This document shows positions 6,841 through 28,227 of a stretch of 64,000 bases of DNA, piece after piece. The notes under the pieces are model-generated. The model was not told the DNA's origin. It searched no databases and saw only the letters and a program-made list of their open reading frames with translations. The first letter of the stretch is position 1. Every line of letters starts with the position of its first letter. The DNA lies in assembly GCA_963775425.1 (NCBI GenBank), contig CAVZJB010000005.1:512001-576000 (forward strand), read 5' to 3'. The DNA is from an uncultured delta proteobacterium. GTDB lineage: Bacteria > Myxococcota > UBA727 > VGSZ01. The position numbers and the translations under genes are program-made.

Positions 6841-9800
6841 ATGCCTTTTCGCCGTCTCCATGTCTTCACCCTTTTGAGCGCCGCCGCCCTGGCCGTGGCC
6901 TCCGCGGGGTGCAGCGAAAAGATCGAGGAGAAGCAAGCCCAGCTCGGCGGCTCCTGCCTCGGCTGCCACACCGGCATCACGGACATCCATCCCCAGTTCG
7001 CGCTCGCCTGCGTCGACTGCCACGGCGGTCACGACGACGTGCCGCTGCCCGCCGTGGTGGACGTGCGCGACCAGGAGCTGTTGAAGGCGAGCCACGTGCT
7101 GCCGCTGGATCCCGAGATGTGGTGGCCCAACGGCATCGACGACAACGGCGACGGCCGGGTGGACGAGCAGGGCGAGTTCTTCGACGGCCGCGTCGTCGAC
7201 CAGGACGGCAACGCCGGCCTCGCCGAAGGGCGCCAGGCGCCGCGCTTCGAGTTCGACAGCGAGATCAACCGCGACCTGAACTACCTGCGCTTCATCAACC
7301 CGGGTGATCTGCGCGTCGCCGAGGTGAGCTGCGGCGGCCACAACAAGAACGCCAATGCGGCCATGGTCTGCCACGCCGAGACCGTCTACGACGTCCGCCG
7401 CTCCATCATGGCGACCAACGCCGGCGTCTCCGCCGGCGCCCTCTACGGCAACGCCCAGCTCCCCACGGCCGCCGACTACGGCAGCGCCTTCGCGCAGTCG
7501 CAGGTGGGCCAGGACTTCGACGCGCGCAACCCGCGCATCGGCCGCGCCGCCTACACGTTCAACTACGAGGCCATGGACGCGAACTACGACCCCGTGTCCA
7601 ACACCTTCGATCACGATGGGCTGCTCGCGGCGGCCAAGGCCAACCTCGATCCCGACGACGACCTCTACGAGGCCACCGCGGGCGCCGTCAGCGACGACGG
7701 CAGCGCCAAGGACCCGTTCGGCAACCCGCTGGATCCGGGCCCCGGCCTCACCCGCACCGGCAACCAGCTCAAGTTCTTCAATCCGACGGACAAGACCAAC
7801 AACCGCGCCATCGACGTCCTCGAGTACATCGGCAACGGCGCCAACCGCACCTTCCCCCCGCCGGGCACGGGCATCGAGCTGCGCCTCCAGAAGATCCTCG
7901 AGGGCCTCGGCGTCGCGCGCCAGAGCCCCATCCGCAACGCCATCCCCAACGACGGCAAGCCCATCATCAACCCTGTGGACGCGGCGCTGCGCAGCTTCCG
8001 CGCGTACCACGTGCTGAACTTCATGTCGCCGAGCGACAACTTCGGCTTCAAGGACTTCACCACGTCGCCCAACGAGGACGATCCGCCGCCCAACGATCCC
8101 AACGACGTCGAGCTCCAGAACAACAACAACCCGTTCGGGCGCTTCCTGTCGTCAGGCTGCACGTCCTGCCACGTCGAGTACGCCAAGGACGGGCACAACG
8201 AGGAGCCCATCGATCGCACTGTGGCGGACAACGGGCGCCAGCCCGAGACCGCGCTGCCCTTCGGCATCCGCCAGGACCTCGGCCAGCGCGCCTATGCCAA
8301 GCGCCACGAGATCAAGACGGCCGTGCAGCTCAACACCTGCGCGCAGTGCCACGGCTTCGTCACCCGCGTCGACTACGCCGCCGAGGGCAAGTTCGAGCTC
8401 GAGGTCGACTTCACCAACCTCTCGCAGGTGCAGACCATCGGGCCCTTCACGTTCTCCACGCCCAAGACCGCGTGCGTGAACGTGTTCGACAACCTCGCCC
8501 ACTACAAGGACGGCAAGATCCTGAACGAGGGCGAGGGCGTCAGCGAGGATCTCAACAACAACGGTGAGCTCGACGAGGGCGAGGACAAGAACAACAACGG
8601 CTGCCTCGACATCCCCAATCGCGTCGCCCGCAGCGACGCCTTCGACGGGCGCCAGTCCAAGCTCATCTACGGAGGCGCCAACGGCTCGGTCCACCTGCAG
8701 GACATCCACATCGAGGAGGGCATGGCCTGCAGCGACTGCCACGTCACCTCGGTGCACGGCGACTCCAACCTGTACACGCGCAATTGGGACGCGGAGCCCA
8801 TGGAGTGCGAGGACTGCCACGGCACCTCGTACGCCAAGGCCAAGCTCATCTCGTCGGGCCCCAACGGCGGCGACAAGTTCACCGACCCCGTGTGGAACAC
8901 GCCGTTCGGCAAGCCCTGGTTCGAGGAGAAGGACGGCAAGATCATCGAGCACAGCCGCACGCAGGCGGGCCTCGAGTGGGAGGTCGCCCAGCTCGTCGAC
9001 GAGAAGGTCGGCGACGCCAAGACGGCGTACGCCAAGTACGCCCACGAGCAGCCGGCGGAGACCATCCCCAATCCAGGTCGTGAGCAGGAGGCGCGCGCCT
9101 TCGCCCACATGCAGGAGGCGGGTAAGCCCGGCGGCCTCGAGTGCTACTCCTGCCACTCCTCGTGGCAGCCCAACTGCCTCACGTGCCACCTCAAGATGGA
9201 CGTGGGCAAGGCCAAGCAGGAGATCTGGTGGGGTGACGACGACGAGTCTGAGATCTTCTTCCAGCTCTTCAGCTACACGCGCTCGCCCTTCTACCTGGGC
9301 CGCGGCGGCGACGTCGAAGGCAACCGCATCTCGACGTACCGCTCCACCATGCAGACGCACCTGACGGTCACCGCCACCGTCGGCAACCAGGGCTTCACCC
9401 TGCTCGACAACGCCATGGTCGCGTCCAACCAGCACCTGAGCTCGATGGTGTCGAACCCGTACTTCCCGCATACGGTGCGCGTCACCGAGACCAAGTCGTG
9501 CGCGCGCTGCCACACGCTCGAGGACGAGCAGGGACGCATCGAGAACGATCACCTCATCACGGAGGCCACGGGCCAGGGCTCGGGCCGCTACATGAACCTC
9601 GGCGATTGGGGCCTGGTGGCCACCACCAACGGCTTCCAGCAGATCGATCTCAAGGCCGAGGGCGGCACGTTCAACGCGCAGGCCAAGGCCCCCGGGATCA
9701 CCTTCCCCGGCTTCGACTTCTCCGACGTCAACCCGCGCCACGCGGACTTCCTCGTGGGCAACGCCACTGACGTGGCCATGCTCCGCGGCGTCGCCTTCGA

Positions 9801-11172
9801 GGACGGCAGCTCCGACCTCGCCGACGTCGCCATCGTGGCGCACAGCGGCGGCGTCTCCATGGTCGACGTCACCGGTCGCGACAACGTGGGCCTGCCGCCC
9901 ACGGAGATCGCGCGCGTGGACTCGCTCGGCCCGGTGGTCTCCGTCGACGTCATCGACACGGCCGCTTCGCAGTCCAAGCGCTTCGTCGCGGTGACGGACG
10001 AGGAGCTGTGCACCATCGACTTCACGAACGCCCTGCAGACCGACACGGTGGCGCCCGTCATCGACGCCGACGCCGGTCAAGAGGGCGACGACGGCGGCGT
10101 GGTGGACGCGGGCGTGGACGGCTTCCTCCAGGGCACGCGCATCGTCGGCTGCCTGCCGCACGGCCTCGACGCCGTCACCCGCGTCAAGCTCCACGGCCGC
10201 TTCGCGGTGGTGGCGCACAGCCGCGGCGTGACGCTGTTCCAGCTCGCGGACAGCGACGACGCGGCGGTGGTGGACCCCGGCGCGCCGCTGGCCGCCATCG
10301 CGACCTTCGAGACCACGCACCCGGCGCTCGACGTCGAGACCTCCGGCCGCTTCATGTACGTGGCCACGGGCCTCGGCGGCGTGGAGACCTTCGACATGGG
10401 CCCCTTCGTCTACCCGCTGTTCGATCAGGACAGCCACGATCCCCTCCAGGGCAGCACGGCGCGCGTCTCCCAGGCGCTCACCAACCAGCAGCAGGAGGCG
10501 GACACGCGCGGCATCGCCGTCTTCGGCAGCCGGCTGCTCGTGGCCGACGGCAAGAACGGCCTGCGCATCCTCGACATGGCGGTGCCCGCCAATCCGCGGC
10601 TCGAGCGCACCATCCGCGACGTCGCGGGCCAGGCGCCCATCGATCAGGCCACGGCGGTGGTGGTGGGGACGGAGACGGTGCGCAACTACGCGCTCGTCGC
10701 CGACGGCTCCCACGGCATCCGCGCGGTGAACATCACGCCGTCCACGGACCTGCGCCTGCAGCTCAAGGACGCGCTCGATCCGGCCAAGCGGGACGCCACC
10801 CGCGGCTTCCGGCTCTCCGAGGAGCGCTGGGACCCGCTCACGCCGTTCGACCCGAAGAACACGACGCCCAAGGTCTTCACCTACGCGACCAACGGGAACG
10901 CGGTCGCGTTGGCCAAGGGCCTGGCCTTCGACAACATCGCGGACAAGAGCGGCAGGCAGCTCCGGGACGGCTGGAGCATCGGCTCCACGACCCTGGATGA
11001 AGCCACCATCGCCAGAATGCGATCGGTGATCGTCAAAGAGGTCCAAGGTACGGTAGACATCTCCGGTGACGGCCTCGGATGCGTCGTGCGCGCAGGCGAC
11101 GAAAACGATGTGGCCAGGGACCCGGAGGATCAGAACCGATGCCTTCCTGTTCAGTCTCGAGGCGGCGAGTGA
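6841..11172 (+). CDS. Large multiheme c-type cytochrome lipoprotein (9 CxxCH + one CX12CH) with C-terminal LVIVD-like beta-propeller
   Basis: ATG 6841, lipobox LAVASAGC; CLGCH, CVDCH, CTSCH, CAQCH, CSDCH, CEDCH, CYSCH, CLTCH, CARCH; repeats FMYVATGLGGVETFD, LLVADGKNGLRILD, YALVADGSHGIRAVN; DxNxxG loops. Confidence 0.88.
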   Translation: MPFRRLHVFTLLSAAALAVASAGCSEKIEEKQAQLGGSCLGCHTGITDIHPQFALACVDCHGGHDDVPLPAVVDVRDQELLKASHVLPLDPEMWWPNGIDDNGDGRVDEQGEFFDGRVVDQDGNAGLAEGRQAPRFEFDSEINRDLNYLRFINPGDLRVAEVSCGGHNKNANAAMVCHAETVYDVRRSIMATNAGVSAGALYGNAQLPTAADYGSAFAQSQVGQDFDARNPRIGRAAYTFNYEAMDANYDPVSNTFDHDGLLAAAKANLDPDDDLYEATAGAVSDDGSAKDPFGNPLDPGPGLTRTGNQLKFFNPTDKTNNRAIDVLEYIGNGANRTFPPPGTGIELRLQKILEGLGVARQSPIRNAIPNDGKPIINPVDAALRSFRAYHVLNFMSPSDNFGFKDFTTSPNEDDPPPNDPNDVELQNNNNPFGRFLSSGCTSCHVEYAKDGHNEEPIDRTVADNGRQPETALPFGIRQDLGQRAYAKRHEIKTAVQLNTCAQCHGFVTRVDYAAEGKFELEVDFTNLSQVQTIGPFTFSTPKTACVNVFDNLAHYKDGKILNEGEGVSEDLNNNGELDEGEDKNNNGCLDIPNRVARSDAFDGRQSKLIYGGANGSVHLQDIHIEEGMACSDCHVTSVHGDSNLYTRNWDAEPMECEDCHGTSYAKAKLISSGPNGGDKFTDPVWNTPFGKPWFEEKDGKIIEHSRTQAGLEWEVAQLVDEKVGDAKTAYAKYAHEQPAETIPNPGREQEARAFAHMQEAGKPGGLECYSCHSSWQPNCLTCHLKMDVGKAKQEIWWGDDDESEIFFQLFSYTRSPFYLGRGGDVEGNRISTYRSTMQTHLTVTATVGNQGFTLLDNAMVASNQHLSSMVSNPYFPHTVRVTETKSCARCHTLEDEQGRIENDHLITEATGQGSGRYMNLGDWGLVATTNGFQQIDLKAEGGTFNAQAKAPGITFPGFDFSDVNPRHADFLVGNATDVAMLRGVAFEDGSSDLADVAIVAHSGGVSMVDVTGRDNVGLPPTEIARVDSLGPVVSVDVIDTAASQSKRFVAVTDEELCTIDFTNALQTDTVAPVIDADAGQEGDDGGVVDAGVDGFLQGTRIVGCLPHGLDAVTRVKLHGRFAVVAHSRGVTLFQLADSDDAAVVDPGAPLAAIATFETTHPALDVETSGRFMYVATGLGGVETFDMGPFVYPLFDQDSHDPLQGSTARVSQALTNQQQEADTRGIAVFGSRLLVADGKNGLRILDMAVPANPRLERTIRDVAGQAPIDQATAVVVGTETVRNYALVADGSHGIRAVNITPSTDLRLQLKDALDPAKRDATRGFRLSEERWDPLTPFDPKNTTPKVFTYATNGNAVALAKGLAFDNIADKSGRQLRDGWSIGSTTLDEATIARMRSVIVKEVQGTVDISGDGLGCVVRAGDENDVARDPEDQNRCLPVQSRGGE

Positions 11173-12890
11173 AGCTCGCGACCCCGGCCGCCGCCCTGTT
11201 TCTCCTCGTGGGAACGGTGGCGGCGGCGAGGGCGGACGCGCAGACAGTCGATGCGTCCGTAGTTCCCACCTATGTGGACAGCGTGCAGCGCGGCCTTCGC
11301 CTGCGCATGGACCTGTGGGGTCGTGAGGCCCTGATCGGCAACCCCGATCCGCCGGTCCAGCTCATCGTCCCGGATGTCGTCAACGAGAAGAACGACACGG
11401 ACGTGGGCGGCATGGTGATCCTGGGCTGGGACAGGCCCTTCGGCGTCCCGCTGACCACCGATCTCATGGGCGACGTCACGAGCGACATCGGCGGTGACTC
11501 GCCGGTGAGCCCGTTCCTCGACGACACGAGCGTCGCGCCCAAGGCCCACATCTATTCGGCGTTCATCGGGCTGTCGGGGGCGCCGGGCGAGGCGCTCGAG
11601 CCGTTCAAGCTCAACATCGGCCGCATGACACAGGTGAGCGAGTCCCCGATCACCTACGACGGCATCTCCACCGGCGTGAACCTCAAGTTCCCCAAGCTCG
11701 GCTTCCTGAACGCCAAGGTCTGGGGCGGCCTCGACGCGCCCCAGCACCTCGCCGCCGATCCCTTCTCCCGCACCGACGCCAAGTACTACCAGGAGCAGTA
11801 CCAGGACCTCTCCGGCTTCGTGTCGCCCACCGGCGGCAAGGAGATCGTTCGCAGCCCGCTCGACTTCAACGCCGACGGCACCCAGGACCCGAACCTCAAC
11901 GCGGTGTTCGGTCTCGACGTCGAGGGCCGCTTCGCGGGCGTCGGCTTCACGCTCACGCACACCTCCATGCCTGCCGCGGGCAGCATCGTCACAGACGAGG
12001 AGAACAACGTGTTCCTGCCGCTCCAGCGCACCACGCTCGAGGGCAGCTACGGTGACGACAGCGATCTGTTGTCATGGATGGTGGCGGCGGACCTGAAGGC
12101 GTCGGACTTCCTGCCGCGCTCCACCGCGCTCAAGGGCGACGTCCTCACCGGCGACGGCACCACCCGCATCGGCGGCAACGTGACGTACCAGTTCCTCGAC
12201 GACATCTGCGCCTACGACTGCACCTTCCGCGCGTTCGACCCCGCCAACAACATCGATCAGGTCCCCGATCAAGGCGCGGTGCTCACCAACGATCAGGTGG
12301 AGGCGGCGCGGGTGCACGATCAGATCCGCCACCTCAACATCGGACCGGCCAAGCCCAACATCGCCCTCGTCGTCGATGCCGAGCGCCAGCTCCCCGCGGG
12401 CTTCACCGCCCTGTTGCGGGGCCGGGTGCGCCAGCACTTCAACGCGGCCGACCTCGATTACTTCCGCACCAACGTCTACGAGGCGGGCGCGGGGGCGAGC
12501 TGGTCCACGGGCCTCGCGCTCGAGGTCGGCACCGAGGTCTACGGTGGCGCCCTCGACTCCGGCGCCGCCGCGGACAAGGGGCTCGACTACACCCTCGTTC
12601 AGGAAGGGATCACCTCCTACGTCGAGAATCGCACCTGGGTCCGCACCGTCCTTCTGGAGGGGAAGCTGTCGAACCTGGCCGAGGCCTTCGTGCGCAGAGA
12701 GGACATCCAGACCAAGGCGCTCGTCGCCTCCGGCCAGTGGAGCGGCGCCTTCGCCGACACGCTGCGCTACGACGTCATCGACTTCTGGTCCGTCTCCGCC
12801 CGGCTCGACGCGGATGCGCTGTCGCCGGTCGACACGCTGAACGGCTCGGGGTACCTCGGGGCCCTGGTGGCGACCTCACTCAAGTTCTGA
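11169..12890 (+). CDS. Probable outer-membrane beta-barrel (porin-like) protein
   Basis: GTG overlaps upstream TGA; signal peptide MKLATPAAALFLLVGTVAAARADA; alternating amphipathic strands; C-terminal ...LGALVATSLKF ending in Phe; sits between multiheme genes. Confidence 0.7.
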   Translation: MKLATPAAALFLLVGTVAAARADAQTVDASVVPTYVDSVQRGLRLRMDLWGREALIGNPDPPVQLIVPDVVNEKNDTDVGGMVILGWDRPFGVPLTTDLMGDVTSDIGGDSPVSPFLDDTSVAPKAHIYSAFIGLSGAPGEALEPFKLNIGRMTQVSESPITYDGISTGVNLKFPKLGFLNAKVWGGLDAPQHLAADPFSRTDAKYYQEQYQDLSGFVSPTGGKEIVRSPLDFNADGTQDPNLNAVFGLDVEGRFAGVGFTLTHTSMPAAGSIVTDEENNVFLPLQRTTLEGSYGDDSDLLSWMVAADLKASDFLPRSTALKGDVLTGDGTTRIGGNVTYQFLDDICAYDCTFRAFDPANNIDQVPDQGAVLTNDQVEAARVHDQIRHLNIGPAKPNIALVVDAERQLPAGFTALLRGRVRQHFNAADLDYFRTNVYEAGAGASWSTGLALEVGTEVYGGALDSGAAADKGLDYTLVQEGITSYVENRTWVRTVLLEGKLSNLAEAFVRREDIQTKALVASGQWSGAFADTLRYDVIDFWSVSARLDADALSPVDTLNGSGYLGALVATSLKF

Positions 12891-12912
12891 ACTCTCTCTT
12901 TCGGATGACGCC

Positions 12913-13908
12913 GTGAACCTGCGATCGCTCGCCCCCCTCGGACTCTCCCTGGCAGTCGCCGCCACGTGCGCCGGCGTGGGCGTCGCGTTCGCCGCCCACG
13001 CGGCGCCCCCCGCGCCGCCGCCGGCCGCGCCGCCGCCGCCGGCGGCCACGGGCAACGGCCCGCCCACGGGGATGAACCTCATCGACACCTCGAGCCCCTT
13101 CGACCACGACGTCCACCTGAACCCCGCCAAGATGGGCGGCAAGAAGATGGGCTGCGAGTCCTGCCACAAGATGGTGAACAAGGACGGCACCTGCCCCAAG
13201 CAGGAGGTGCGGTTCCCCGAGCACGACGCCTGCCAGGCGTGCCACACGGCGAACTTCTATACGCAGCCGCTCACCATCTGCACCAACTGCCACAAGGCCA
13301 ACATCTTCCAGAAGCGGCCGCCGCTGCGCGAGCTGACCCGGCAGGTCACGCCGCGCAAGGCGGAGTTCTCGCACCGAAGCCACCTCGATGCGAAGAAGGG
13401 CACGGACTGCACCTCGTGCCACTCGGTGCTCAGGGGCGGCCTCGTCATCGGGCACCCGAGCCACCCGAACTGCTGCCAGTGCCACTCGGGCCCCGGGCTC
13501 AACGGCAAGATCGCCGAGCCGCACATGAACAAGTGCGGCTCCTGCCATGACACGGCGAAGAACGCCGGGCGTCCGCCGTCCACCATCCACGACTTCAGCC
13601 ACAAGATGCACCGCGAAGACCCGCGTACGCATACGTCGGTGGCGTGCCAGCAGTGCCACATCAACATGGTCCAGGCCACGACGCTGCGGCAGATCCGCAT
13701 CCCGCCGATGCCCGTGTGCCTGCAGTGCCATGACGGCTCCGATCCGAACAAGCCGAACCCCAAGAACCCGGCGTGGAGCGGCACGGGCGCGTTCAACTTC
13801 ACCGCGTGCCTGAAGTGCCACCTCCCGGGCAGCATCCAGAACCGCCCGCTGCCTCCGGGCCACCCGGGGGCTCCCACCGCTCCCACCGAGGCGGGGGCCA
13901 ACCCATGA
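12913..13908 (+). CDS. Periplasmic nonaheme cytochrome c (three c7-like triheme units)
   Basis: Signal peptide; 9 CxxCH (CESCH, CQACH, CTNCH, CTSCH, CCQCH, CGSCH, CQQCH, CLQCH, CLKCH), each triplet preceded by F[DS]HxxH. Confidence 0.9.
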   Translation: MNLRSLAPLGLSLAVAATCAGVGVAFAAHAAPPAPPPAAPPPPAATGNGPPTGMNLIDTSSPFDHDVHLNPAKMGGKKMGCESCHKMVNKDGTCPKQEVRFPEHDACQACHTANFYTQPLTICTNCHKANIFQKRPPLRELTRQVTPRKAEFSHRSHLDAKKGTDCTSCHSVLRGGLVIGHPSHPNCCQCHSGPGLNGKIAEPHMNKCGSCHDTAKNAGRPPSTIHDFSHKMHREDPRTHTSVACQQCHINMVQATTLRQIRIPPMPVCLQCHDGSDPNKPNPKNPAWSGTGAFNFTACLKCHLPGSIQNRPLPPGHPGAPTAPTEAGANP

Positions 13909-18554: not shown

Positions 18555-20105
18555 TCAGGGCTTCGCGGCGTCGGGGTGCATCATGGTCGCGTCGAACACG
18601 CCGCGGTCTGGGGGCGGCGCTTCGGGCGGCGGGTGGAAGTCGAGGGCGCAGCCGAGCCGGCGCGCCTTGTCGACGTCCATCATGACGACGTGCGGCTGCT
18701 TCCACGTCGGGTACAGGGACAGGTTCACCTCGCGGCTGCCGAACACGCGCTGAAACAAGAACGGGTCGCCGCCGTGCCACTTCCACGGGTGCTGAAGCTC
18801 GGTGGTGAGGGCGATGACGGAGCGCGTCTCGGCCGTCGGCGCCGCCACCACGTTCGGGCGCGCCTTGCCGTCGAGGCCGCGCAGCGCCTCCCGCACGGCC
18901 GGCGACACGAGGAAGGTCTCGTCGGGGCGGCGGTCGAGATACGAGGCAATCTCCTCGACCGGCGCGCTGGACTTGTTGGCCGCGACCGTCTGCGCGGCGA
19001 AGGCCAGGTAGCCCGCGTCGACGACGACGACGATGACGAGAGGAGCGGCGAGCACGCGAAACCGCCCCGCCGCCGCCGCCGCCGCGCACGCCAGGAGCGG
19101 CACGAGCGGCAGGAAGTTGCGCACGATGAAGGTCGGCTGAACGAGGAACAGCCCGAGCAGCGCCGCGGCGAGCACGAGCGGCGCCGCGCGCGCCGGCGCC
19201 GCCCGCACCGCGGGGACCGCCAGCGCGAGGCCGGCCAGCGCACACGCGAGCACCACCAGGGATCCGACGACGAACGGCGAAGCCGCGCAGCAGGCGAACC
19301 AACGCACGAGGTGGAACACCATGTCGAAGAACCCGTCGACGCCGTAGCCGGCGGCGCCACCGCCATAGATGCGCGATTGGTAGCGGAGCGCGGCGACGAC
19401 GAGCTGCGGCTCGACGACGGCGCCGGGCGTGACGACGACGAACGCCGCCAGGCACGCGCCGCCGGCGATCAGCAGCCGCTTGAAGCGCGGCGCCATGAGG
19501 AGCGCCGCCAGCGCGACGGAGAGCGCGACGAGCCCCAGGGTGTACTTGGTGGACGCCGCCATGCCGCCGAAGATCGCGGCGACGACGAGATCGCGCGTGC
19601 GCCCCTCGGGCCGGGCGGCGAACGCCAGCGACGTCGTCAACAGGAGCGTGCCGAGGGCGTCCGGCGCGATGTAGCGGGCGTGCGTCGCGAATTCGAACGA
19701 CGTGCCGGCGAGCGCCGCGGCGAGCGCCGCCACCAGCGGCCGGCTGCCGAGCGCGCGCGCGAGCGCCGCGGTGGCCACGGGCGTGAAGGCGGTGACGACG
19801 ATGAGCACCGCGCGGATCTCGAGGAAGAAGCGGTGGTACTCGGGGCGCGACGTGAGCCCCAACAGGAACGGCGACGCCGTGGCCGCGATGACGTCGAAGA
19901 TCGCCATCGGGTAGCCGTAGGTGCGCGGGAGCGGCACGTGGTTTTCCACGGCCCACATGAAGGTCCACACGTTGGTGGGCTCGTCCCAGTTCCCGCCGCC
20001 GATATCGAGGCCGACGAGCCCCGTCACGGCGAGCCAGGCGACCACCGCCGCGACCGCGACGCGCGCGAGCGACGCCTCGCGCCGTTGCCAATCGCCGGAG
20101 AGCAC
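18555..20105 (-). CDS. GT-C (ArnT/PMT, GT39/GT83-like) membrane glycosyltransferase
   Basis: NWDEP loop after first TM, YGYP, ARYIAPDAL, GMAASTKY motifs, multiple TMs; start estimated at GTG 20105. Confidence 0.7.
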   Translation of the reverse strand: MLSGDWQRREASLARVAVAAVVAWLAVTGLVGLDIGGGNWDEPTNVWTFMWAVENHVPLPRTYGYPMAIFDVIAATASPFLLGLTSRPEYHRFFLEIRAVLIVVTAFTPVATAALARALGSRPLVAALAAALAGTSFEFATHARYIAPDALGTLLLTTSLAFAARPEGRTRDLVVAAIFGGMAASTKYTLGLVALSVALAALLMAPRFKRLLIAGGACLAAFVVVTPGAVVEPQLVVAALRYQSRIYGGGAAGYGVDGFFDMVFHLVRWFACCAASPFVVGSLVVLACALAGLALAVPAVRAAPARAAPLVLAAALLGLFLVQPTFIVRNFLPLVPLLACAAAAAAGRFRVLAAPLVIVVVVDAGYLAFAAQTVAANKSSAPVEEIASYLDRRPDETFLVSPAVREALRGLDGKARPNVVAAPTAETRSVIALTTELQHPWKWHGGDPFLFQRVFGSREVNLSLYPTWKQPHVVMMDVDKARRLGCALDFHPPPEAPPPDRGVFDATMMHPDAAKP

Positions 20106-20184: not shown

Positions 20185-21627
20185 ATGACCGACGTCTCCG
20201 ACGAGTGGACGGCGCTTCTCAAGGCCATCCCCTTCCTCTCCGCGCTCCCGGAAAAGACCCTGAAGGACAGGGTCATCCTCGGAAAGATCCCGCAGGCCGA
20301 GGTGCCCGCCTCCCTCGTCGAGGTAGGCGACGGCGAGCTGGTGATCCGCGAGGGGGACTTCGGCGACACCTTCTACGTCATCGTCAACGGCACCTTCGTC
20401 GTCGAGGTGTGGAACGACGACGGCGTCGCCGTCGAGGTCACGCGCATCGGCCGCGGCTCCTACTTCGGTGAGCTCGCCATGATCGGCCGCGGCATGCGCG
20501 CGGCGTCGGTGAAGGCGGTCGGCGCGGGCGCGCAGGTGCTCGAGATCTACAAGGGCCCGTTCGACCGCATCATCAAGGACGACAAGACCAACTCGGTGAA
20601 GAACGCGCTCGAGGCCATCTACGCGCGGCGCACCATCGAGAAGTTCGTGCGTGACAACGAGTACCTGCGCGAGCTGTCCGAGGTCGACAAGAAGCTGATC
20701 GTCGACACCGGCAAGCTTCACCGCGTGGAGGCCTTCCACGACGTGTACAAGGCCGGTGATCCGCCCAAGAGCTTCTACCTCGTGCGCCAGGGCTTCCTGA
20801 AGGTGTGGCGCATGGAGGGCGAGGTGGAGAGCATCCTCGCCTACCTGCGCGACAAGGACTTCTTCGGCGACCTCGAGCTCGTCGAGGGGCGCCAGCGCAC
20901 GGCCACGGTGACGTCGATGGAGCCGGTTGAGCTCGTGGAGCTGCCGCGCTCGGTGTTCGCCGGCATCTACCAGCGCTACCCCGACCTCATCAAATCGTTC
21001 CGCCGCTACGAGCTCGACCGCCGCGCCGAGCTGCCGCAGTTGTCGAGCAAGACCGGCATGATGTTCGTCAAGGACCTCATCGAGTCCGGCATGGGCCAGG
21101 CGCGCTCGGCGCTCATCATCAACATGGACCTGTGCACCCGCTGCGGCAATTGCGTGCAGGCGTGCAGCGACCTCCACGACGGGTACTCGCGGCTCATCCG
21201 CCGCGGCAAGAAGCTCACCCACCGTGACGACGGCGGCGGCCTCGAGAACCTCTTCTTCCCGAACTCCTGCGTGCATTGCCGCACGCCCGACTGCATGGCC
21301 GGCTGCCCCGTCGGCTCCATCGCGCGCGACAAGGACGGCGAGGTCTACATCAAGGACTTCTGCGTCGGCTGCGGCGCGTGCGCCAAGGGCTGCGAGTTCG
21401 GCAACATCTCGATGGTGGTCGCCAAGAACGCCGACGGCACCGAGAAGAAGATGGCCGGCAGCAACAAGGTCGTGCGCAAGGCCTCCAAGTGCGACATCTG
21501 CAAGGGCTACGAGCAAGCCAACTGCGTCTACAACTGCCCGCAGGGCGCCATCATCCGCATCGACCCCAACGAGTACTTCGAGGAGCTCCACCGCACGGTG
21601 GACATCGTCTCGATGGCGCAGGGCTGA
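20185..21627 (+). CDS. Tandem cNMP-binding domains fused to a DmsB/NrfC-like 4x[4Fe-4S] ferredoxin
   Basis: ATG 20185; FGELAMIGRGMRAASV and FFGDLELVEGRQRTATV cassettes; CTRCGNCVQAC, CVHCRTPDCMAGCP, CVGCGACAKGC, KCDIC...NCVYNCP; no signal peptide. Confidence 0.9.
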   Translation: MTDVSDEWTALLKAIPFLSALPEKTLKDRVILGKIPQAEVPASLVEVGDGELVIREGDFGDTFYVIVNGTFVVEVWNDDGVAVEVTRIGRGSYFGELAMIGRGMRAASVKAVGAGAQVLEIYKGPFDRIIKDDKTNSVKNALEAIYARRTIEKFVRDNEYLRELSEVDKKLIVDTGKLHRVEAFHDVYKAGDPPKSFYLVRQGFLKVWRMEGEVESILAYLRDKDFFGDLELVEGRQRTATVTSMEPVELVELPRSVFAGIYQRYPDLIKSFRRYELDRRAELPQLSSKTGMMFVKDLIESGMGQARSALIINMDLCTRCGNCVQACSDLHDGYSRLIRRGKKLTHRDDGGGLENLFFPNSCVHCRTPDCMAGCPVGSIARDKDGEVYIKDFCVGCGACAKGCEFGNISMVVAKNADGTEKKMAGSNKVVRKASKCDICKGYEQANCVYNCPQGAIIRIDPNEYFEELHRTVDIVSMAQG

Positions 21628-21677
21628 GGCCCGGCTGCCGGCGACCTCACGCCGGCGCTCCGCGGTAGCATCGGCGC

Positions 21678-23990
21678 ATGCGCGCCCCCGCCCTCTTCGT
21701 CATCGCCGCCGCGTTGGGCTCCCTCGCGGGCGGCTGCTCCTCGTGCGGCGCGCCCGCGGCGTCGGACGCCGGCCCGGGCGGCGGCGAGGGCGAAGGGGAA
21801 GGCGAAGGCGAAGGAGAGGGCGACGTCGACGCCGGGACCCCCGACGCCGGGCCGCAAGACGCGGGCCCGCCCAATCCGAACGCCGTGGGCCTCGACGCGC
21901 GCCCGTCGAACCCCACGTGCCTCGCGCAGGACCGGCCGCCCACGGGGAGCACCGTCGACTTCGAGGAGCCCTGGCCCGAGCTGAACGTCGTCTCGCCGGT
22001 CTTCATGCTCCAGGAGCCCGGCACCACGACGATGTACGTCGTGCAGCGCGGCGGGAAGGTGGTGCGCTTCGACAAGGCCGACGCCGCCGTCACAAACCCC
22101 GAGGTCTTCGCGGACATCACGGCGAACGTGCAGGCCAACGACGTCGGCAACGACGAGCGCGGTCTCCTGGGCATGGCCTTCCATCCGGACTGGCCGCAGG
22201 TGCAGGAGGTCTTTTTGAGCTACACCGGCTTCGGCGCCGGCGGCGCCCTCGTGGACCGCGTGTCGCGCTTCACGCTCGCGGCCGACGGCACCGTCGACGT
22301 CGGCAGCGAGCAGATCCTCCTCGACACCGCCGACTTCGCCGGCAACCACAACGGCGGGATGATCGCGTTTTCGCCCACGGACGCCTGCCGCGGCTGCCTG
22401 TACTACGGCGACGGCGACGGCGGGCAGGCCGACGACCCGCACCAAAACGGCCAGTCCGGGCAGACGCACCTCGCCAAGATCCTGCGCATCGACATCGACA
22501 GGACCGACCCGGGCCTCCCCTACGCCATCCCGCCGGACAACCCGTTCGTCGACGACGCCGACTTCCTCCCCGAGATCTACGCGTACGGGGTGCGCAACCC
22601 GTGGCGCTGGAGCTTCGACCGCGACAGCGGCGACCTCTGGGTCGGCGACGTCGGGCAGGGCGCCGTGGAGGAGGTCGACAAGATCCTCGCCGGCGGCAAC
22701 TACGGCTGGGACATCCTCGAGGGCGACCAGTGCCACGAGCAGACGTCGGGGAGCTGCAATCAGGGCGGCTTCGAGGCGCCCATCACCACGTACACCCACG
22801 CCGGCGGCCGCAACGCGATCGTCGGCGGCTACGTCTACCGGGGCAGCGCCATGCCCGCGCTCGTGGGCACGTATTTGTTCGCGGACTTCGGCACCGGTGA
22901 GATCTTCGCGCTGTTCTTCGACACCCAGGGCAACGCGGCGCCGCAGCGCGTGGGCGACTCGCCGAACAACATCGCGAGCTTCGCCGAGGACGCCGACGGC
23001 GAGCTCTACGTCCTCGACCACGCCACCGGCATCGTTCGCAAGCTCGTAGCTGCGGGCCCGCAGCCGCCGGACAACTTCCCGCGTCTGCTGTCGCAGACCG
23101 GGTGCGTCGACCCGGCCGACCCGGCGGCGCCGGCGGGCGGGCTCATCCCGTACGGGGTCAACCATGTCCTGTGGTCCGACGGCGCCGTGAAGGAGCGCTT
23201 CATGGGCCTGCCCGACGGGCTGAAGGCCACCATCCTCGACGACGGCGACATCGACTTCCCCGTGGGCACGGTCCTGATGAAGACCTTCAAGGTCGGCGGC
23301 GTGCGCGTGGAGACGCGGCTGTTGATGCACCACGACGACGGCGACTGGGGCGGCTACACCTACGAGTGGAACGACGCCGGCACCGACGCCACCCTGCTGC
23401 CGCCGGCAGGCAAGATCAAGGCGCTGCCAAACGGCCAGCTCTGGACGTACCCGTCGCGCAACGGCTGCCTCGCCTGCCACACCGCCGCCGCGCACCGCGC
23501 GCTCGGTCCCGAGGTGGCGCAGCTCAACGGCGGCTTCGTCTATCCCGACGGCCGCTTCGCGAACCAGCTCCATACCCTCGACGCCATCGGCGTGCTCGAC
23601 GCGCCGCTGCCGGGCGCCCTGGCGGACCTGCCGGCGTTCCCGCCCGTCGACGACGCCGCGGCGTCGCCCGAGGCCGTGGCGCGGGCGTACCTGCACGTGA
23701 ACTGCTCCATCTGCCATCGCCCGGGCGGCATCGGCGTCGCCGACACGGACTGGCGCTTCACCACGGCGTTTCAGGACATGGCCTTGTGCAACGCCGAGCC
23801 CACCGAGGGTGACCTCGGCGTCGCCGGCGCCAAGCGCCTCGTCCCCGGAGACCCCGCGCGCTCCCTCATCTCGCTGCGCATGAAGCGTTTGGGCGCCGGC
23901 CGCATGCCGCTCCTCGGCAGCGTCGTCGTGGACCCCCAGGGCACCGCGGCCATCGACCGTTGGATCACGTCGCTGTCGTCATGTCCCTGA
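21678..23990 (+). CDS. PQQ-dependent glucose/sorbosone dehydrogenase lipoprotein fused to a diheme c domain (SO2930/HNE_0200-like)
   Basis: Lipobox LAGGC, (GE)n linker, ERGLLGMAFHP, NHNGG, YAYGVRNPWRWSFD, DVGQGAVEEV; C-terminal LWSDGAVKERF, FPVGTVLMKTF, ETRLL, CLACH, CSICH. Confidence 0.85.
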   Translation: MRAPALFVIAAALGSLAGGCSSCGAPAASDAGPGGGEGEGEGEGEGEGDVDAGTPDAGPQDAGPPNPNAVGLDARPSNPTCLAQDRPPTGSTVDFEEPWPELNVVSPVFMLQEPGTTTMYVVQRGGKVVRFDKADAAVTNPEVFADITANVQANDVGNDERGLLGMAFHPDWPQVQEVFLSYTGFGAGGALVDRVSRFTLAADGTVDVGSEQILLDTADFAGNHNGGMIAFSPTDACRGCLYYGDGDGGQADDPHQNGQSGQTHLAKILRIDIDRTDPGLPYAIPPDNPFVDDADFLPEIYAYGVRNPWRWSFDRDSGDLWVGDVGQGAVEEVDKILAGGNYGWDILEGDQCHEQTSGSCNQGGFEAPITTYTHAGGRNAIVGGYVYRGSAMPALVGTYLFADFGTGEIFALFFDTQGNAAPQRVGDSPNNIASFAEDADGELYVLDHATGIVRKLVAAGPQPPDNFPRLLSQTGCVDPADPAAPAGGLIPYGVNHVLWSDGAVKERFMGLPDGLKATILDDGDIDFPVGTVLMKTFKVGGVRVETRLLMHHDDGDWGGYTYEWNDAGTDATLLPPAGKIKALPNGQLWTYPSRNGCLACHTAAAHRALGPEVAQLNGGFVYPDGRFANQLHTLDAIGVLDAPLPGALADLPAFPPVDDAAASPEAVARAYLHVNCSICHRPGGIGVADTDWRFTTAFQDMALCNAEPTEGDLGVAGAKRLVPGDPARSLISLRMKRLGAGRMPLLGSVVVDPQGTAAIDRWITSLSSCP

Positions 23991-24158
23991 GCGCCGTGAA
24001 GCGGGCAGGCGCGGTCGCGTTCGCCCCGGCGCTCGCGGCGGCCCTTGGGGCGCGAGGCGGCCCGGGGCGCGCCGGCGCCGGTGCCGTCGTCCCACATCGA
24101 CGTTCCTTCGGGCGGCAGGGTCGACTTCGAGGGGGAGATCAGGGATAACGGGCCCCCG

Positions 24159-25085
24159 ATGGCAAGCACGACAGCACCCGCCCCTGCCGCGCCGCTGAAG
24201 CCGAAGAGCAGCAAGAAGCTCTCCGACAAGACACTCAAGGAGCGCGCGTTCCGCTGGGACAAGCTCGCCGCGTGGCTCGCGGCGTTCTTCGCCCTGGCCG
24301 CCGTCTGCGGCCTGTGGGCGCTCTCCAAGTACGTCCTCGACGCGCCGTCGCGGGGCGGGCGCGGCACCGGCGGCGACACCATCGTCGGCTACACCCTCGC
24401 GGGCATCACCCTCATCCTCTACGGCGTCGTCGCCGCGTACTCGTGGCGCCACAAGCGGCGCCGGCAGAAGCGCGCGATGACCCGGGTCTGGATGGAGGTG
24501 CACCTGGCGTTCGGCATGGTCGCCGGCGTCACGGCCATCCTCCACTCGGGCCCCAAGCTCGGGGCGCCCATCCACGGCGCGTTCCTCATCGCCTGGGAGC
24601 TCCTCATCCTCACGGGCATCGTCGGCAAGCTCATCAGCGTCTACGTGCCGCGCCGGCTCACGCGCATCGAGGACGAGGCCCTGCTGGTGGAGGACGTGGC
24701 CGAGCGCCAGAAGGCCATGCGCCTCGAGATCGAGCAGCTCCTCACGGACTGCGACGACAAGCTGGTGCACATCGTCAACGACGTCATCCCCAAGAAGATC
24801 AAGGCGCCCGACTGGTACGGCAAGCGCCGCATGAAGCGCCACGACGTCGTGGAGAGCGTCTACAAGGCCATCGACGGCGAGGGCATGCTCGCCCGCGGCG
24901 AGGTCCCCGCCGACAAGAAGGACTGGCTCAAGCGCATGATCACGTGCCTGGTCGAGGAGGAGTTCCTCGATCGCATGCTCACCTACCACTACGTGCTGCG
25001 CGCGTGGGTGCCCGTCCACGTGGCGCTCACCACGCTGTGCTTCCCCTGGCTCATCTTCCACGTCGTCAGCGTGTTCTTGATCTAG
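24159..25085 (+). CDS. Inner-membrane protein, probable diheme cytochrome b (ferric-reductase-like TM domain)
   Basis: About 5 TM helices; two H-X13-H pairs inside helices (HLAFGMVAGVTAILH, HVALTTLCFPWLIFH). Confidence 0.7.
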   Translation: MASTTAPAPAAPLKPKSSKKLSDKTLKERAFRWDKLAAWLAAFFALAAVCGLWALSKYVLDAPSRGGRGTGGDTIVGYTLAGITLILYGVVAAYSWRHKRRRQKRAMTRVWMEVHLAFGMVAGVTAILHSGPKLGAPIHGAFLIAWELLILTGIVGKLISVYVPRRLTRIEDEALLVEDVAERQKAMRLEIEQLLTDCDDKLVHIVNDVIPKKIKAPDWYGKRRMKRHDVVESVYKAIDGEGMLARGEVPADKKDWLKRMITCLVEEEFLDRMLTYHYVLRAWVPVHVALTTLCFPWLIFHVVSVFLI

Positions 25086-25095
25086 AGGTCCACCG

Positions 25096-28000
25096 ATGTT
25101 CTGCCTGAAGGTCGTCGACGGACTGTCTGCCGGTATCGAGATCCTGCTCAAGCAGGGAGGCACCACCACCGTCGGCCGCGCCGAGGACGCCGACGGTCAG
25201 ATCGAAGACGGCCTGTGCTCCGGCAAGCACTTCGAGATCGAGTGGACGGCGGCGGGGATGATCATCAAGGACCTCGGGTCCTTGAACGGCGTCTTCGTCA
25301 ACGGCGAGCGCGTCCGCGAAAACCGCCAGGTCAAGCGCGGCGACTTCATCCAGGCCGGGACCACGCTGATGGAGATCGCCGTCAGCTCGGGCAACGTCGA
25401 GGTCAAGGTCAGCGAGCGCGAGCCGGCCATCAGCGGCAAGGCCACGATGATGATGGACGCGGCGGCGGTGCAGGACGCCATCGCGCGCACCCGCGCCCAG
25501 GCGCGCGTGAAGGCCAAGGAGCTCAACCGCACCGTCATCAAGACGCAGATGATGACCAAGGCCGAGATCGCCAAGCTGATGACCGATCAGCCGGTGAGCA
25601 AGGCCAAGACCATGGTCCTGCAGGCGCTCCCGCCGGAGATCCTCGCGGGCACCAACAACGCCGGCCTGGCCATCCTGCAGAAGCTCCTCGCCGACGTCAC
25701 GCCCGACAACCCCACCGTGTGCGTGGTCAAGAAGGGCGCGTCCATCACGCCCTACGCCAAGAGCGTCATCACGCTCGGCCGTGACGCGCGCAACGACATC
25801 CCGCTCATCAGCGACGACGTCTCCGGCAGCCACGCCCGCATCGTGAAGGAGCCGTCGGGGCGCTTCGAGGTCATCGACGAGGGCTCCACCAACGGCACCT
25901 TCGTCAACGGCAAGCGCGTCGTGCGCCAGTACCTGCAAAACGGCGACACCATCCAGCTCGGCCAGTGGACCGGGCCCGTGGCGCTCTCTGCCGGGCGCAT
26001 GGCCATGGAGCTCAACCGCGAGGGCGTCTCCGTCAAGGACGACAAGGGCGTCATCAAGGTCCTCAAGGTCGGCGACGAGGGCGCCAAGGAGTGGGACCCG
26101 CTTCTGCGTGAAGCCGTGCGCGCGCCGATGCTCGTCAAGAGCGACCGTGGCGAGAAGTTCAAGAAGAAGAAGAAGGGCAAGAGCGCCGACGACATCGCGT
26201 TCCGCGCCACCGGTGACGTCCAGCGCGGGGCGATGAAGAGCCGGCTCGCGTGGGCCGGCGTCCTGACGTCGCCGATCGTCATCGCGCTGTTCTTCGGCGG
26301 CTACTTCGTCGTCTCGCTGCTGCACAAGGGCTCCACCTTCGATGCGCTCTCCCCGGGCGCCATCACCAACGCGCACGCGAGCGAGACGTTCATCGCCAAG
26401 GCCAAGGAGGCGGCGTCGGCGGAGAACAAGTTCGGCGGTCACACCACCTGCTTCGCGTGCCACCCCGGGCTCAACCGCGAGGTGACGGACACCGCCTGCT
26501 CGAGCTGCCACTCCCAGGTACCGACGTCGACGCACACCGAGGTGGGGCTCACCTGCTTCGACTGTCACGGCGAGCACAACGGCCGCAACTTCTCGCCGAC
26601 GGCGCAGGCGCGGCTCGGCTGCGTCGGCTGCCACCAGGGCGACCCGCACGCGCGCCTCTTCGACAAGGGCGAGGGGAAGAAGGCGCGGGCCAAGGCGCCG
26701 GTGATCACGCAGGCGCAGCTCAACATCGACAAGGCCGAGGTGCACGAGAAGCACTTCAACATCGAGGGGCGCTGCGTCGCGTGCCACGCCGTCGCCGAGG
26801 GTGCGACGGCGCTGACCAGCCCGGAGGAGATCGCCAAGCAAGCGCGCAAGTCGTGCGGCATCTGCCACGCCGCCACCGACCCGCAGCCCGACGAGTGCGT
26901 GCGTTGCCACGTGCAGCACCCGAAGGACGCCGCGCTCGTCGAGTTCCTGAAGGCGCAGCCCACCAACGAAGACGACATCAAGCAGGCGCGCATCGATCCC
27001 GGCACCGTGCCCATCTTCCTCGCGCTCGCCTTCGGCATGACGCTGCCGCTCGTGCTCGCGGCGGTGGTCAAGCCGAAGCCGAAGCAGAAGAAGGAGCAGG
27101 TCGTCGAGGAGAAGGCGGGCGCCAAGCCTGCGGGCGCTCCCGCCGGCGCCGCGCCGCCTCCGCCCGGCCCGCCGGGCGCGCCGCCGCCCCCTCCCGGGGC
27201 GCGGGCTCCGGGGCCACCTCCCCCGCCACCGGGCGGGGCGCCGCCGCCTCCGCCGCCGGGCGGGGCGCCGCCGCCGCCGCCGCCACCGGGCGGGCGCGCG
27301 GCGCCGCCGCCGCCTCCGCCGCCGGGCGGCATGGCGCCGCCTCCGCCGCCTCCGCCGGGGGGCGCGCCGCCGCCGCCGCCTCCGCCGCCGGGGGGCCGCG
27401 TCGCGCCGCCGCCTCCGCCGCCGCCCGGCGGGGTCCCCGCGCCGCCGCCGCCGCCCGGTGGCGTGCCGCCTCCGCCTCCGCCCCCGGGAGGGATGGCGCC
27501 GCCTCCGCCTCCGCCGCCGGGCGGTGTGCCGCCTCCGCCCCCTCGTGCCGCGCCGCCGCCTCCCCCGGGAGTCCCGCCGCCGCCGCCGCCCCCCGGAGGC
27601 CCGCCGCCGCCGCCGCCCGCCGCGGCCCGGCCAGCGCCCGCGGCGCCGCCGCCTCCGCCCCCGCCCGCCGCGGTGGCGCCTCCGCCGCCTCCTGCGGCGC
27701 GGCCGGCGCCGCCGCCGCCACCCCCTCCCGCCGCGCGGCCAGCGCCGCCTCCGCCGCCTCCCGCGGCGCGGCCGGCGCCTCCACCGCCGCCGCCGGCAGC
27801 CGCACCTCCGCCGCCGGCGCCCCGGCCGGTGGCGCCGGCGCCGGTGCCCGCGCCTCCTCCGCCGGCTCCGGTGGTGCGCGCGGGGACCAAGGCCGCGATG
27901 CAGATCCCGGCACAGCCCGCCCCGGTGCCGGCGCAGCCCGCGGTGCGCGCGGGGACCAAGGCCGCGATGCAGATCCCCGACCCGCGCCAGGCGCCACAGC

Positions 28001-28227
28001 CGCCACAGCCGCCGCAGCAGGGGCAGCCGCCGCCACAGCAGCCGCCACCGCAGGGGCAGTTCCGCAACCCGACGACGGCCAAGGGGACGATGCTCGGGAC
28101 CATGCCCGTCGTCGACGAGGACATGATCCGGCGCGCCCAGCAGCAGATCAACCAGGGCAAGCCCGGCACGCAGGTCTCCGGCAAGGGCGGCGCCGCGCCG
28201 CTGCCGCCGGACAAGGACAAGAAGTAG
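25096..28227 (+). CDS. 2xFHA - TM - heptaheme cytochrome c - TM - polyproline tail protein
   Basis: Two FHA domains (GR, SxxH, DxGSxNGxFVNG); TM LAWAGVLTSPIVIALFFGGYFVV; 7 CxxCH; second TM VPIFLALAFGMTLPLVLAAVV; long Pro-rich tail with PnGG repeats. Confidence 0.88.
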   Translation: MFCLKVVDGLSAGIEILLKQGGTTTVGRAEDADGQIEDGLCSGKHFEIEWTAAGMIIKDLGSLNGVFVNGERVRENRQVKRGDFIQAGTTLMEIAVSSGNVEVKVSEREPAISGKATMMMDAAAVQDAIARTRAQARVKAKELNRTVIKTQMMTKAEIAKLMTDQPVSKAKTMVLQALPPEILAGTNNAGLAILQKLLADVTPDNPTVCVVKKGASITPYAKSVITLGRDARNDIPLISDDVSGSHARIVKEPSGRFEVIDEGSTNGTFVNGKRVVRQYLQNGDTIQLGQWTGPVALSAGRMAMELNREGVSVKDDKGVIKVLKVGDEGAKEWDPLLREAVRAPMLVKSDRGEKFKKKKKGKSADDIAFRATGDVQRGAMKSRLAWAGVLTSPIVIALFFGGYFVVSLLHKGSTFDALSPGAITNAHASETFIAKAKEAASAENKFGGHTTCFACHPGLNREVTDTACSSCHSQVPTSTHTEVGLTCFDCHGEHNGRNFSPTAQARLGCVGCHQGDPHARLFDKGEGKKARAKAPVITQAQLNIDKAEVHEKHFNIEGRCVACHAVAEGATALTSPEEIAKQARKSCGICHAATDPQPDECVRCHVQHPKDAALVEFLKAQPTNEDDIKQARIDPGTVPIFLALAFGMTLPLVLAAVVKPKPKQKKEQVVEEKAGAKPAGAPAGAAPPPPGPPGAPPPPPGARAPGPPPPPPGGAPPPPPPGGAPPPPPPPGGRAAPPPPPPPGGMAPPPPPPPGGAPPPPPPPPGGRVAPPPPPPPGGVPAPPPPPGGVPPPPPPPGGMAPPPPPPPGGVPPPPPRAAPPPPPGVPPPPPPPGGPPPPPPAAARPAPAAPPPPPPPAAVAPPPPPAARPAPPPPPPPAARPAPPPPPPAARPAPPPPPPAAAPPPPAPRPVAPAPVPAPPPPAPVVRAGTKAAMQIPAQPAPVPAQPAVRAGTKAAMQIPDPRQAPQPPQPPQQGQPPPQQPPPQGQFRNPTTAKGTMLGTMPVVDEDMIRRAQQQINQGKPGTQVSGKGGAAPLPPDKDKK

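Follow-up and report, generated by a model that had tools for sequence, protein, structure and literature searches.

The closest described relatives of the gene cluster analysed here come from two preprints. The first predicts an operon, ptdABCDEFG, that encodes a pentahaem cytochrome, a porin, an FAD/NAD(P) oxidoreductase (PtdC), a tetrahaem cytochrome, a protein with cyclic nucleotide monophosphate (cNMP) and 4Fe-4S features (PtdE), a ferric-reductase-like transmembrane (TM) protein and a decahaem cytochrome. It is carried by marine Alphaproteobacteria, Gammaproteobacteria, Nitrospirales and Planctomycetes, and in the words of its authors the function 'remains completely unknown' (10.1101/2023.11.21.568154). 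The second describes the NHC cluster of Ferrigenium straubiae: a nonahaem membrane cytochrome with a forkhead-associated (FHA) domain, a 5-TM protein 'with no matches to redox active motifs' and a cytoplasmic [4Fe-4S] protein, expressed in all four conditions. Its authors call the FHA domain previously unreported with multihaem cytochromes; they suggest quinone reduction and a non-redox 5-TM protein (10.64898/2026.01.22.701106). We report a variant of this predicted, uncharacterised type of system, which is therefore not wholly new, from an uncultured delta proteobacterium. It lies in a stretch of 64,000 nucleotides (contig CAVZJB010000005.1, positions 512,001 to 576,000; hereafter the window) whose G+C content is about 72%. 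The variant is marked by two FHA domains, a 14-haem protein with LysM, a 9-haem protein with LVIVD, a proline-rich tail, and separate genes for the cNMP-ferredoxin and the cytochrome b-like subunits.

Seven genes of the cluster, g01 to g04, g07, g09 and g10, form a conserved set. The family comparison covered 11 genomes, the source genome and 10 others. Genes g02, g09 and full-length g10 are each present in the same 8 of the 11: in the source genus, in the one genome of genus g2 and in all six of genus g4; genus g3, with three genomes, yielded none of them (0/3). One relative (G007) carries on a single contig g01-g02-g03-g04-g07, then an unrelated 320-aa open reading frame (ORF), then g09-g10. 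This ORF occupies the place that g08 has in the window, a variable slot between g07 and g09. In both G005 and G007, g07 comes directly after g04, and in G003 genes g02 through g09 and g10 share one contig (C236). The seven-gene set follows from these relatives' clusters, in which the GSDH-dihaem gene g08, the YfhO-like gene and the PMT-like gene of the window were not found (G005 and G007 are without the YfhO/PMT insert).

The first-pass annotation, made from the sequence alone, had read the locus as eight + strand genes encoding a candidate electron conduit. Seven of them hold as a conserved set; g08 was not found in the clusters of relatives, and the set is interrupted by the YfhO-like gene (+ strand) and the PMT/GT39-like gene (− strand), neither of which had been mentioned. 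Its expectation that homologues co-occur across genomes, and its remark on similar gene sets in other phyla, are both borne out by the family genomes and by the public-genome loci described below.

The inner module consists of g07, g09 and g10, all on the + strand. Gene g07 (20185-21627; 480 aa) encodes a protein predicted to be cytoplasmic, with tandem cNMP-binding domains followed by a ferredoxin. Pfam recognises cNMP_binding (119 bits in two stretches) and Fer4 families. Against PDB sequences, the N-terminal half is similar to the paired cNMP domains in regulatory subunits of PKA/PKG (E ~5e-19) and the C-terminal half to the four-cluster ferredoxins HycB (HycB3) and NrfC (E 1e-11 to 8e-11). 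The four [4Fe-4S] cysteine motifs are CxxCxxCxxxC, twice, and CxxC...CxxxCP, twice. A search with g07 returned about 48 clusters of the same length and, at 41-47% identity, about 35 longer ones (657-803 aa). The additional C-terminal ~270 residues of the longer relatives align with all of g09 (E 5e-12 and 3e-12); these ~35 protein clusters are g07-g09 gene fusions.

By hydropathy and alignment, g09 (24159-25085; 308 aa) is a protein with five TM helices, to which, as to g02, neither Pfam nor NCBIfam assigns a family. It contains two H-x13-H pairs, H115/H129 on TM3 and H287/H301 on TM5. These four histidines are invariant in 14 of 14 fused proteins. Across 18 g09-domain sequences drawn from Myxococcota, Acidobacteriota, Nitrospirota and other metagenome-assembled genomes (MAGs), ten residues are strictly conserved (18/18): R97, W111, H115, H129, G153, G156, L280, W283, H287 and H301. 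The placement of the histidines would fit two stacked b-haems, making g09 a candidate dihaem cytochrome b. H115 and H287 probably lie on the cytoplasmic side and H129 and H301 on the periplasmic side, given the cytoplasmic N-terminus of the fused forms and a basic loop after TM2. The layout would be comparable to that of the NOX/FRD proteins. In Pfam, relatives of g09 weakly match DUF4405 (12/18), Ni_hydr_CYTB (9/18; best 4.4e-7) and Ferric_reduct (6/18; best 7.7e-6), and a profile of the cytochrome b-like domain gave nothing meaningful against all PDB sequences (best E 0.18). The earlier description of g09 as diheme-b-like is supported by its membership of a family with four invariant histidines and with weak ties to dihaem cytochromes b and ferric reductases.

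Gene g10 (25096-28227; 1043 aa) combines FHA domains (124 bits in two stretches) with c7/c3-type matches and seven CxxCH motifs. In the predicted topology both FHA domains are cytoplasmic and are followed by a TM helix, a periplasmic 7-haem domain, a second TM helix and a cytoplasmic tail of ~380 residues, 47% of them proline. This architecture is rare: in a word-based search, 17 of 90 matches reach past the FHA region. In place of the proline-rich tail, Fer4 and Pyr_redox domains occur in Kofleriaceae (L022) and a second FHA domain in Thermoanaerobaculia (L038). At the DNA level, the tail of g10 is encoded by degenerate repeats of 27-69 bp (27139-27843). The FHA motifs (GR, SxxH, NG) and the phosphate-binding cassettes of the cNMP domains look canonical in the translations, by their usual definitions. 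Since the domains of g07 and g10 show the usual ligand-contact motifs, regulation by cyclic nucleotides and kinase marks is plausible.

We scanned one genome per species with the alignment of the fused protein, which matched at least 599 stretches; 354 of the matches listed were confirmed as relatives and 80 loci were kept. Neighbourhood counts, made with tblastn and by counting motifs, are based on 71 of these 80 (L016-L086), which are true cNMP-ferredoxin relatives. A cytochrome b-like domain is adjacent or fused in 55 of the 64 loci with enough sequence; this tblastn count is a lower bound, as the fused proteins of Sorangium and Polyangiaceae are too divergent to score even with a 788-aa fused ORF present. 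Within 5 kb downstream, a multihaem ORF is found in 47 of 53 loci, 37 of these being of the FHA-haem type. Where ~10 kb is available on both sides (37 loci), Pyr_redox domains are present in 34, a g01-like gene in 20 and a Ser/Thr kinase (Pkinase) in 15. Altogether, rearranged forms of the set are met in Myxococcota, Acidobacteriota (Thermoanaerobaculia), Nitrospirota, Burkholderiales-type MAGs and others.

The rearrangements follow lineage. In Thermoanaerobaculia the order is a kinase (in some loci), a DUF4388/FHA gene, a Pyr_redox-cNMP-ferredoxin fusion, the cytochrome b-like gene, an FHA-10-haem-FHA gene, an HbpS-like gene, a gene for a 798-aa protein and a g01-like haem/LVIVD gene, the last present in 11 of 11 loci; DUF4388-FHA genes neighbour loci of this type. 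Of 25 members of the 798-aa family, 24 have F or Y as the last residue, as outer-membrane proteins do. The HbpS-like gene of this lineage (L038, 14663-16513, and its Thermoanaerobaculia homologues) codes for a secreted 616-aa protein with two HbpS-like domains of the haem-binding/degrading type; it keeps its place next to the FHA-decahaem gene on one side and the putative barrel on the other, and has no counterpart in the window. In Kofleriaceae/Haliangiales, an operon for a g01-like, a 7-haem, a 16-haem, a 598-aa and a 15-haem protein is divergent from a cNMP-ferredoxin-cytochrome b fusion and a protein with 4 FHA domains, 7 haems, Fer4 and Pyr_redox. Sorangium and Polyangiaceae have a kinase, a 5-haem protein, the fused protein and a TM-4-haem-Fer4-Pyr_redox protein. 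In L016-L018, a 9-haem gene is divergent from the fused gene and its FHA/7-haem partner. At least four gene orders (window, L022, L038 and L074) link the g01-like gene with the inner module.

The position of the Pyr_redox (FAD/NAD(P)H) module differs as well. In Thermoanaerobaculia (L038) it stands at the N-terminus of the cNMP-ferredoxin subunit; in Kofleriaceae (L022) it follows Fer4 at the C-terminal end of the FHA-haem subunit; and in Sorangium (L043) the TM-4-haem subunit carries it C-terminally. In two paralogues of the source genome it is directly attached to the cytochrome b-like domain. Since the subunit that carries this module changes from lineage to lineage, the subunits probably act as one complex with a real electron input, for which its attachment across lineages suggests flavin and NAD(P)H as the usual partner. 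The two paralogous loci lie on contigs C11 (160001-180000; L099) and C4 (367001-387000; L100) and encode proteins of 748 and 957 aa in which Fer4 and Pyr_redox are joined to a C-terminal homologue of g09 (hhalign probability 99.1%, E 5.5e-19). Each fusion gene is followed by a gene for a cytochrome with 30 CxxCH; C11 also has a Ser/Thr kinase and an 819-aa cytochrome with 29 CxxCH nearby. In a sample of 151 genomes of the phylum, the cytochrome b-like domain is present in 48, mostly within ORFs of 650-1100 aa.

The outer part of the cluster comprises g01 to g04, also on the + strand. Gene g01 (6841-11172; 1443 aa) encodes a lipoprotein-like product with a lipobox-like N-terminus (LAVASAG/C), nine CxxCH over ~850 residues and a C-terminal LVIVD beta-propeller region. 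It matches LVIVD in Pfam at 22.8 bits (cut-off 20.2), as well as Cytochrome_C7, and has no match among PDB sequences. Its homologues also have 9-10 CxxCH and LVIVD, the latter with E 1.4e-23 in Thermoanaerobaculia (L038). It is a candidate outer or surface cytochrome.

Gene g02 (11169-12890; 573 aa) codes for a predicted outer-membrane beta-barrel with a signal peptide and a C-terminal ...ATSxRF, whose terminal F is conserved in an 11-row alignment. Its relatives are few: 10 representatives among 1.84 billion proteins. An AlphaFold2 prediction from the single sequence reached a mean predicted local distance difference test (pLDDT) of 31; repeated with the 11-row alignment, it gave the model used for fold searches, with ~24 long strands, pLDDT 55.7 and a predicted TM-score (pTM) of 0.53. 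Foldseek found 72 PDB matches at E<=1e-3, and all 50 of those listed are outer-membrane barrels: ushers, LptD, TonB-dependent receptors and porins, with MtrB (6r2q_B) at rank 32. VIA-align, which is independent of Foldseek, likewise returned membrane barrels in 50 of 50 listed matches (Z 10.3-13.7), the longest alignments being those with MtrB (Z 10.7, 377 residues), FimD and Cir. Thus g02 models as a large outer-membrane beta-barrel of ~24 strands, as first predicted. One further weak match to g02, P0219, is a repeat protein and was discarded.

Gene g03 (12913-13908; 331 aa) encodes a predicted secreted 9-haem cytochrome c of the c7/c3 type, matching Cytochrome_C7 and Cytochrom_CIII in Pfam; all nine CxxCH are invariant in eight sequences. 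Relatives at 33-36% identity adjoin the gene of the fused cNMP-ferredoxin-cytochrome b protein in L016-L018. We consider g03 a candidate periplasmic or barrel-inserted relay. Gene g04 (13905-15950; 681 aa) begins with a membrane anchor or signal, followed by LysM repeats, a Pro/Ala linker and a 14-haem domain; Pfam matches are LysM (40.9 bits), c7/c3 and Mtrc-MtrF_II-IV (36.3 bits). It is a candidate peptidoglycan-tethered periplasmic relay.

The motif counts of the first-pass annotation agree with the translated + strand ORFs. The 41 CxxCH are distributed as 9 in g01, 9 in g03, 14 in g04, 2 in g08 and 7 in g10, and make up 41 of the 44 found in all six frames of the window; in 1000 residue shuffles of each protein, chance gave a mean of 0.002-0.08 and a maximum of 2. 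The four [4Fe-4S] motifs of g07 and the two H-X13-H pairs of g09 are likewise present where they had been placed. Pfam and NCBIfam agree on the domain calls for LVIVD, LysM, cNMP_binding (two), Fer4, GSDH with the SO2930-type dihaem, and FHA (two).

We propose that the seven conserved genes encode a two-part redox system spanning the cell envelope, a reading to which we give a probability of about 0.55. A NOX-like, quinone-independent electron export would feed an outer part that resembles porin-cytochrome systems. A cytoplasmic reductant, NAD(P)H or ferredoxin, would reduce the four clusters of g07, which would dock on g09. Two b-haems in g09, one held by H115 and H287 on the cytoplasmic side and one by H129 and H301 on the periplasmic side, may then move electrons over the inner membrane as in NOX/FRE/MsrQ-type domains. 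The periplasmic heptahaem domain of g10, held by its two TM helices, would take up these electrons, and the LysM-tethered g04 together with g03 would bridge the periplasm to the g02 barrel, by analogy with MtrCAB/Pcc. The 9-haem/beta-propeller lipoprotein g01 would act at the surface. Flow would probably run outward and bypass quinones, modulated by the cNMP and FHA domains. The outward direction is favoured because the usual fused partner is a dehydrogenase-type flavoprotein, and because outward electron movement goes with the membrane potential.

Several observations weigh against this proposal. In G005, g09 and g10 lie on contigs other than that of g01-g07, as they do in the fragmented G009, and in the window the set cannot form one transcript, since it is split by a + strand gene, a − strand gene and the GSDH gene. 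No Pyr_redox or other obvious donor module that could feed g07 is present in this locus. The case for haem b is made by conserved histidines and by the weak matches of relatives, g09 itself having no direct family match. Confidence in the g02 model is middling (pLDDT 55.7) and the model leaves out residues 1-131, and BLASTP and hhalign detect no homology among the proteins at the barrel position of three lineages, namely g02, the 598-aa protein of Kofleriaceae (p598) and the 798-aa protein of Thermoanaerobaculia (p798); we treat the latter two as positional analogues of g02 only. A g01-like match is missing from 17 of the 37 full-flank loci, and in L016-L018 the inner module has just a 9-haem protein beside it and no g01-like gene. 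Finally, many carriers, such as Sorangium, Nitrospirota and iron oxidisers, are not known metal respirers.

Some of these observations would be expected if two separate systems happened to be neighbours, which we regard as unlikely and yet as the alternative that survives best. The inner module g07/g09/g10 would then serve a periplasmic process, such as reduction of an N-oxide or an oxidant, or repair as by MsrQ, and g01-g04 would be an independent cytochrome set with no continuous conduit between them. L016-L018, without g01-like or barrel genes, fit this picture, as do the 17 loci without a g01-like match and the unlinked g09 and g10 of G005. In Ferrigenium the related cluster adjoins nirK (10.64898/2026.01.22.701106), and a possible role in the nitrogen cycle is raised by the ptd authors (10.1101/2023.11.21.568154). 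Against a separation speak the identical phyletic patterns of g02, g09 and g10 in the family (8/11 each), the position of g07 directly after g04 in G005 and G007, and the linkage of the g01-like gene with the inner module, seen in all 11 Thermoanaerobaculia loci and in no fewer than four gene orders.

We consider it distinctly improbable that the flow runs inward, with electrons taken from a donor outside the cell or in the periplasm, such as Fe(II), and passed by way of the c-haems and g09 to Fe-S or flavin acceptors in the cytoplasm. Relatives do occur in Nitrospirota (L055, L056) and in iron oxidisers: besides Ferrigenium, whose NHC cluster is expressed in four conditions, a table of the Gallionellaceae pangenome has a 'Forkhead-associated protein' with 10 CXXCH (PMC9900912). 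Transfer onto low-potential Fe-S or NAD(P)+ across an inside-negative membrane would nevertheless be uphill twice, no coupling module was seen, and Pyr_redox-Fer4 domains of the input type are the commonest partners (34/37 loci). Equally improbable is a system that mainly senses, its haems reporting periplasmic or external redox state to the cytoplasmic FHA, cNMP and proline-rich parts with little bulk flow: two FHA and two cNMP domains, a long proline-rich tail, no Pyr_redox in this variant's locus, and Pkinase and DUF4388-FHA genes beside the loci of other lineages would suit a sensor. Its needs are exceeded, however, by a four-[4Fe-4S] ferredoxin and 39 CxxCH in four proteins with a barrel, and the flavoprotein dehydrogenase domain fused in most relatives also speaks against it.

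The two-part outward system may have a further layer, which we put forward tentatively and hold less probable than the system itself. Flux could be switched post-translationally: cyclic nucleotides would bind the Fe-S subunit, and the FHA domains would recognise marks set by Ser/Thr kinases. The first-pass annotation had suggested gating of this kind or, alternatively, reporting of external redox state to the cytoplasm; both are hypothetical. The inner module would then be a widespread, quinone-independent 'NOX-plus-wire' built on an unrecognised dihaem b family, and in some lineages the wire might, with similar reserve, continue through a barrel to a surface haem/beta-propeller protein. We know of no extracellular electron conduit, Mtr and Pcc included, with built-in second-messenger or phosphothreonine sensors. 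If the gated reading is true, this would be the first second-messenger-gated one. The family would couple reductant in the cytoplasm directly with haems of the periplasm and the surface, and signalling would control the link. Relatives are present in several phyla, and a variant occurs in Sorangium strains that are in culture (L043, L045, L053, L085), which makes genetics feasible.

The remaining genes of the locus stand apart from the conserved set. Gene g08 (21678-23990, + strand; 770 aa, 2 CxxCH) encodes a lipoprotein-like sugar dehydrogenase (GSDH) of the pyrroloquinoline quinone type, fused to an SO2930-family dihaem cytochrome; it scores 251.6 bits against TIGR03806, under the cut-off of 313.3. 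Inserted between g04 and g07 is a convergent pair of genes for large, glycosyltransferase-like membrane proteins, YfhO-like (16304-18526, + strand) and PMT/GT39-like (18555-20105, − strand). The stop of g04 and the YfhO-like gene are separated by an 18-bp tandem repeat of 16.4 copies with 81% match (15980-16272), which borders the inserted pair; depending on frame, it reads as His/Ala/Gly or Pro/Trp/Thr repeats. The genes on either side have no connection with the locus: a PAS histidine kinase, an asparaginase, an SLT-domain protein, an ArsR/AHSA1 pair, beta-oxidation genes and a TonB receptor. Among the scanned loci, L087-L095 match the ferredoxin part alone, belong to unrelated oxidoreductases and were kept outside all counts. 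One of these, from a marine alphaproteobacterium (L091, 9192-12958), and likewise L090 and L094, has a 5-TM protein of 264-268 aa with two H-x13-H pairs, preceding a ferredoxin-fused oxidoreductase of ~990 aa; they are unrelated to the cluster and were caught via the ferredoxin motif. An apparent fusion of the cytochrome b-like domain to an FHA-haem protein in L072 was dropped, the match being in a frame other than that of the long ORF.

Among characterised systems, the conduits MtrCAB and Geobacter Pcc (OmaB-OmbB-OmcB) share with the outer part a large outer-membrane barrel beside a periplasmic multihaem cytochrome of ~330 aa and a lipoprotein multihaem cytochrome. This general layout is present in the window, the g02 barrel lying between g01 and g03 with nine haems each. 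At the level of families the likeness ends: g02 has no match to MtrB/PioB in NCBIfam or Pfam at E<=0.01 and its Z of 10.7 with MtrB is tied with those of many unrelated barrels, and g03, with nine CxxCH, generic c7/c3 models and sub-threshold matches to HmcA, TmcA and QrcA, is not a decahaem of the MtrA type. The surface cytochrome of the window has a beta-propeller, and while Mtr and Pcc are fed from the quinone pool, the feed here is no CymA-, ImcH- or CbcL-type quinol dehydrogenase. The Tmc, Hmc and DsrMKJOP complexes of sulfate reducers likewise join periplasmic multihaem c, membrane cytochrome b and cytoplasmic Fe-S; their b subunit is of another type, the window set contains no CCG-domain protein, and partial NCBIfam matches to HmcA, TmcA, DsrO and QrcA all fall far under the family cut-offs.

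For the membrane step, NOX, FRE, MsrQ and prokaryotic cytochrome b561 are presumably the nearest parallels, having two histidine pairs on two TM helices placed for two stacked haems, as g09 has on TM3 and TM5, and drawing electrons from a cytoplasmic flavin/NAD(P)H module. Different from all of them, g09 has five helices with a cytoplasmic insert of ~110 residues, its partner is a poly-ferredoxin instead of an FAD/NADPH domain, and its output would go to c-type multihaem proteins.

The first-pass annotation had held that known conduits carry neither cNMP nor FHA domains, a view overtaken by the two preprints, where ptd has cNMP/4Fe-4S and ferric-reductase-like subunits and Ferrigenium an FHA-nonahaem cytochrome. 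Our literature search met the name ptdABCDEFG in 10.1101/2023.11.21.568154 alone, and found no description of this variant, of g07-g09 fusions or of the histidine pairs. Judged by that preprint's description, g07 with its two cNMP_binding domains and Fer4 shares the cNMP-binding and 4Fe-4S character of PtdE, and PtdC corresponds to the Pyr_redox of most relatives, the 5-haem and 4-haem loci of Polyangiaceae and Sorangium fitting best. As described, ptd is without FHA, LysM and LVIVD, and its haem counts are 5, 4 and 10 against 9, 9, 14 and 7 in the window, where the barrel is present and the oxidoreductase gene is missing. The Ferrigenium cluster, also compared by description, has the same three-gene layout as g10, g09 and g07; it differs in having nine haems, one predicted TM helix and one FHA domain, and its preprint, as far as it describes the cluster, reports no cNMP domain, barrel or LVIVD cytochrome. 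Each preprint thus saw one piece and left its function open, and the fusions and invariant histidines join the pieces. New here are the recurrence in multiple phyla, the Pyr_redox module that shifts between subunits, and the four invariant histidines and cNMP-ferredoxin fusion of the 5-TM protein. Where the Ferrigenium authors see a 'motif-less', non-redox protein, the 5-TM protein here has invariant histidines and fusions to redox domains, which assign it a redox role.

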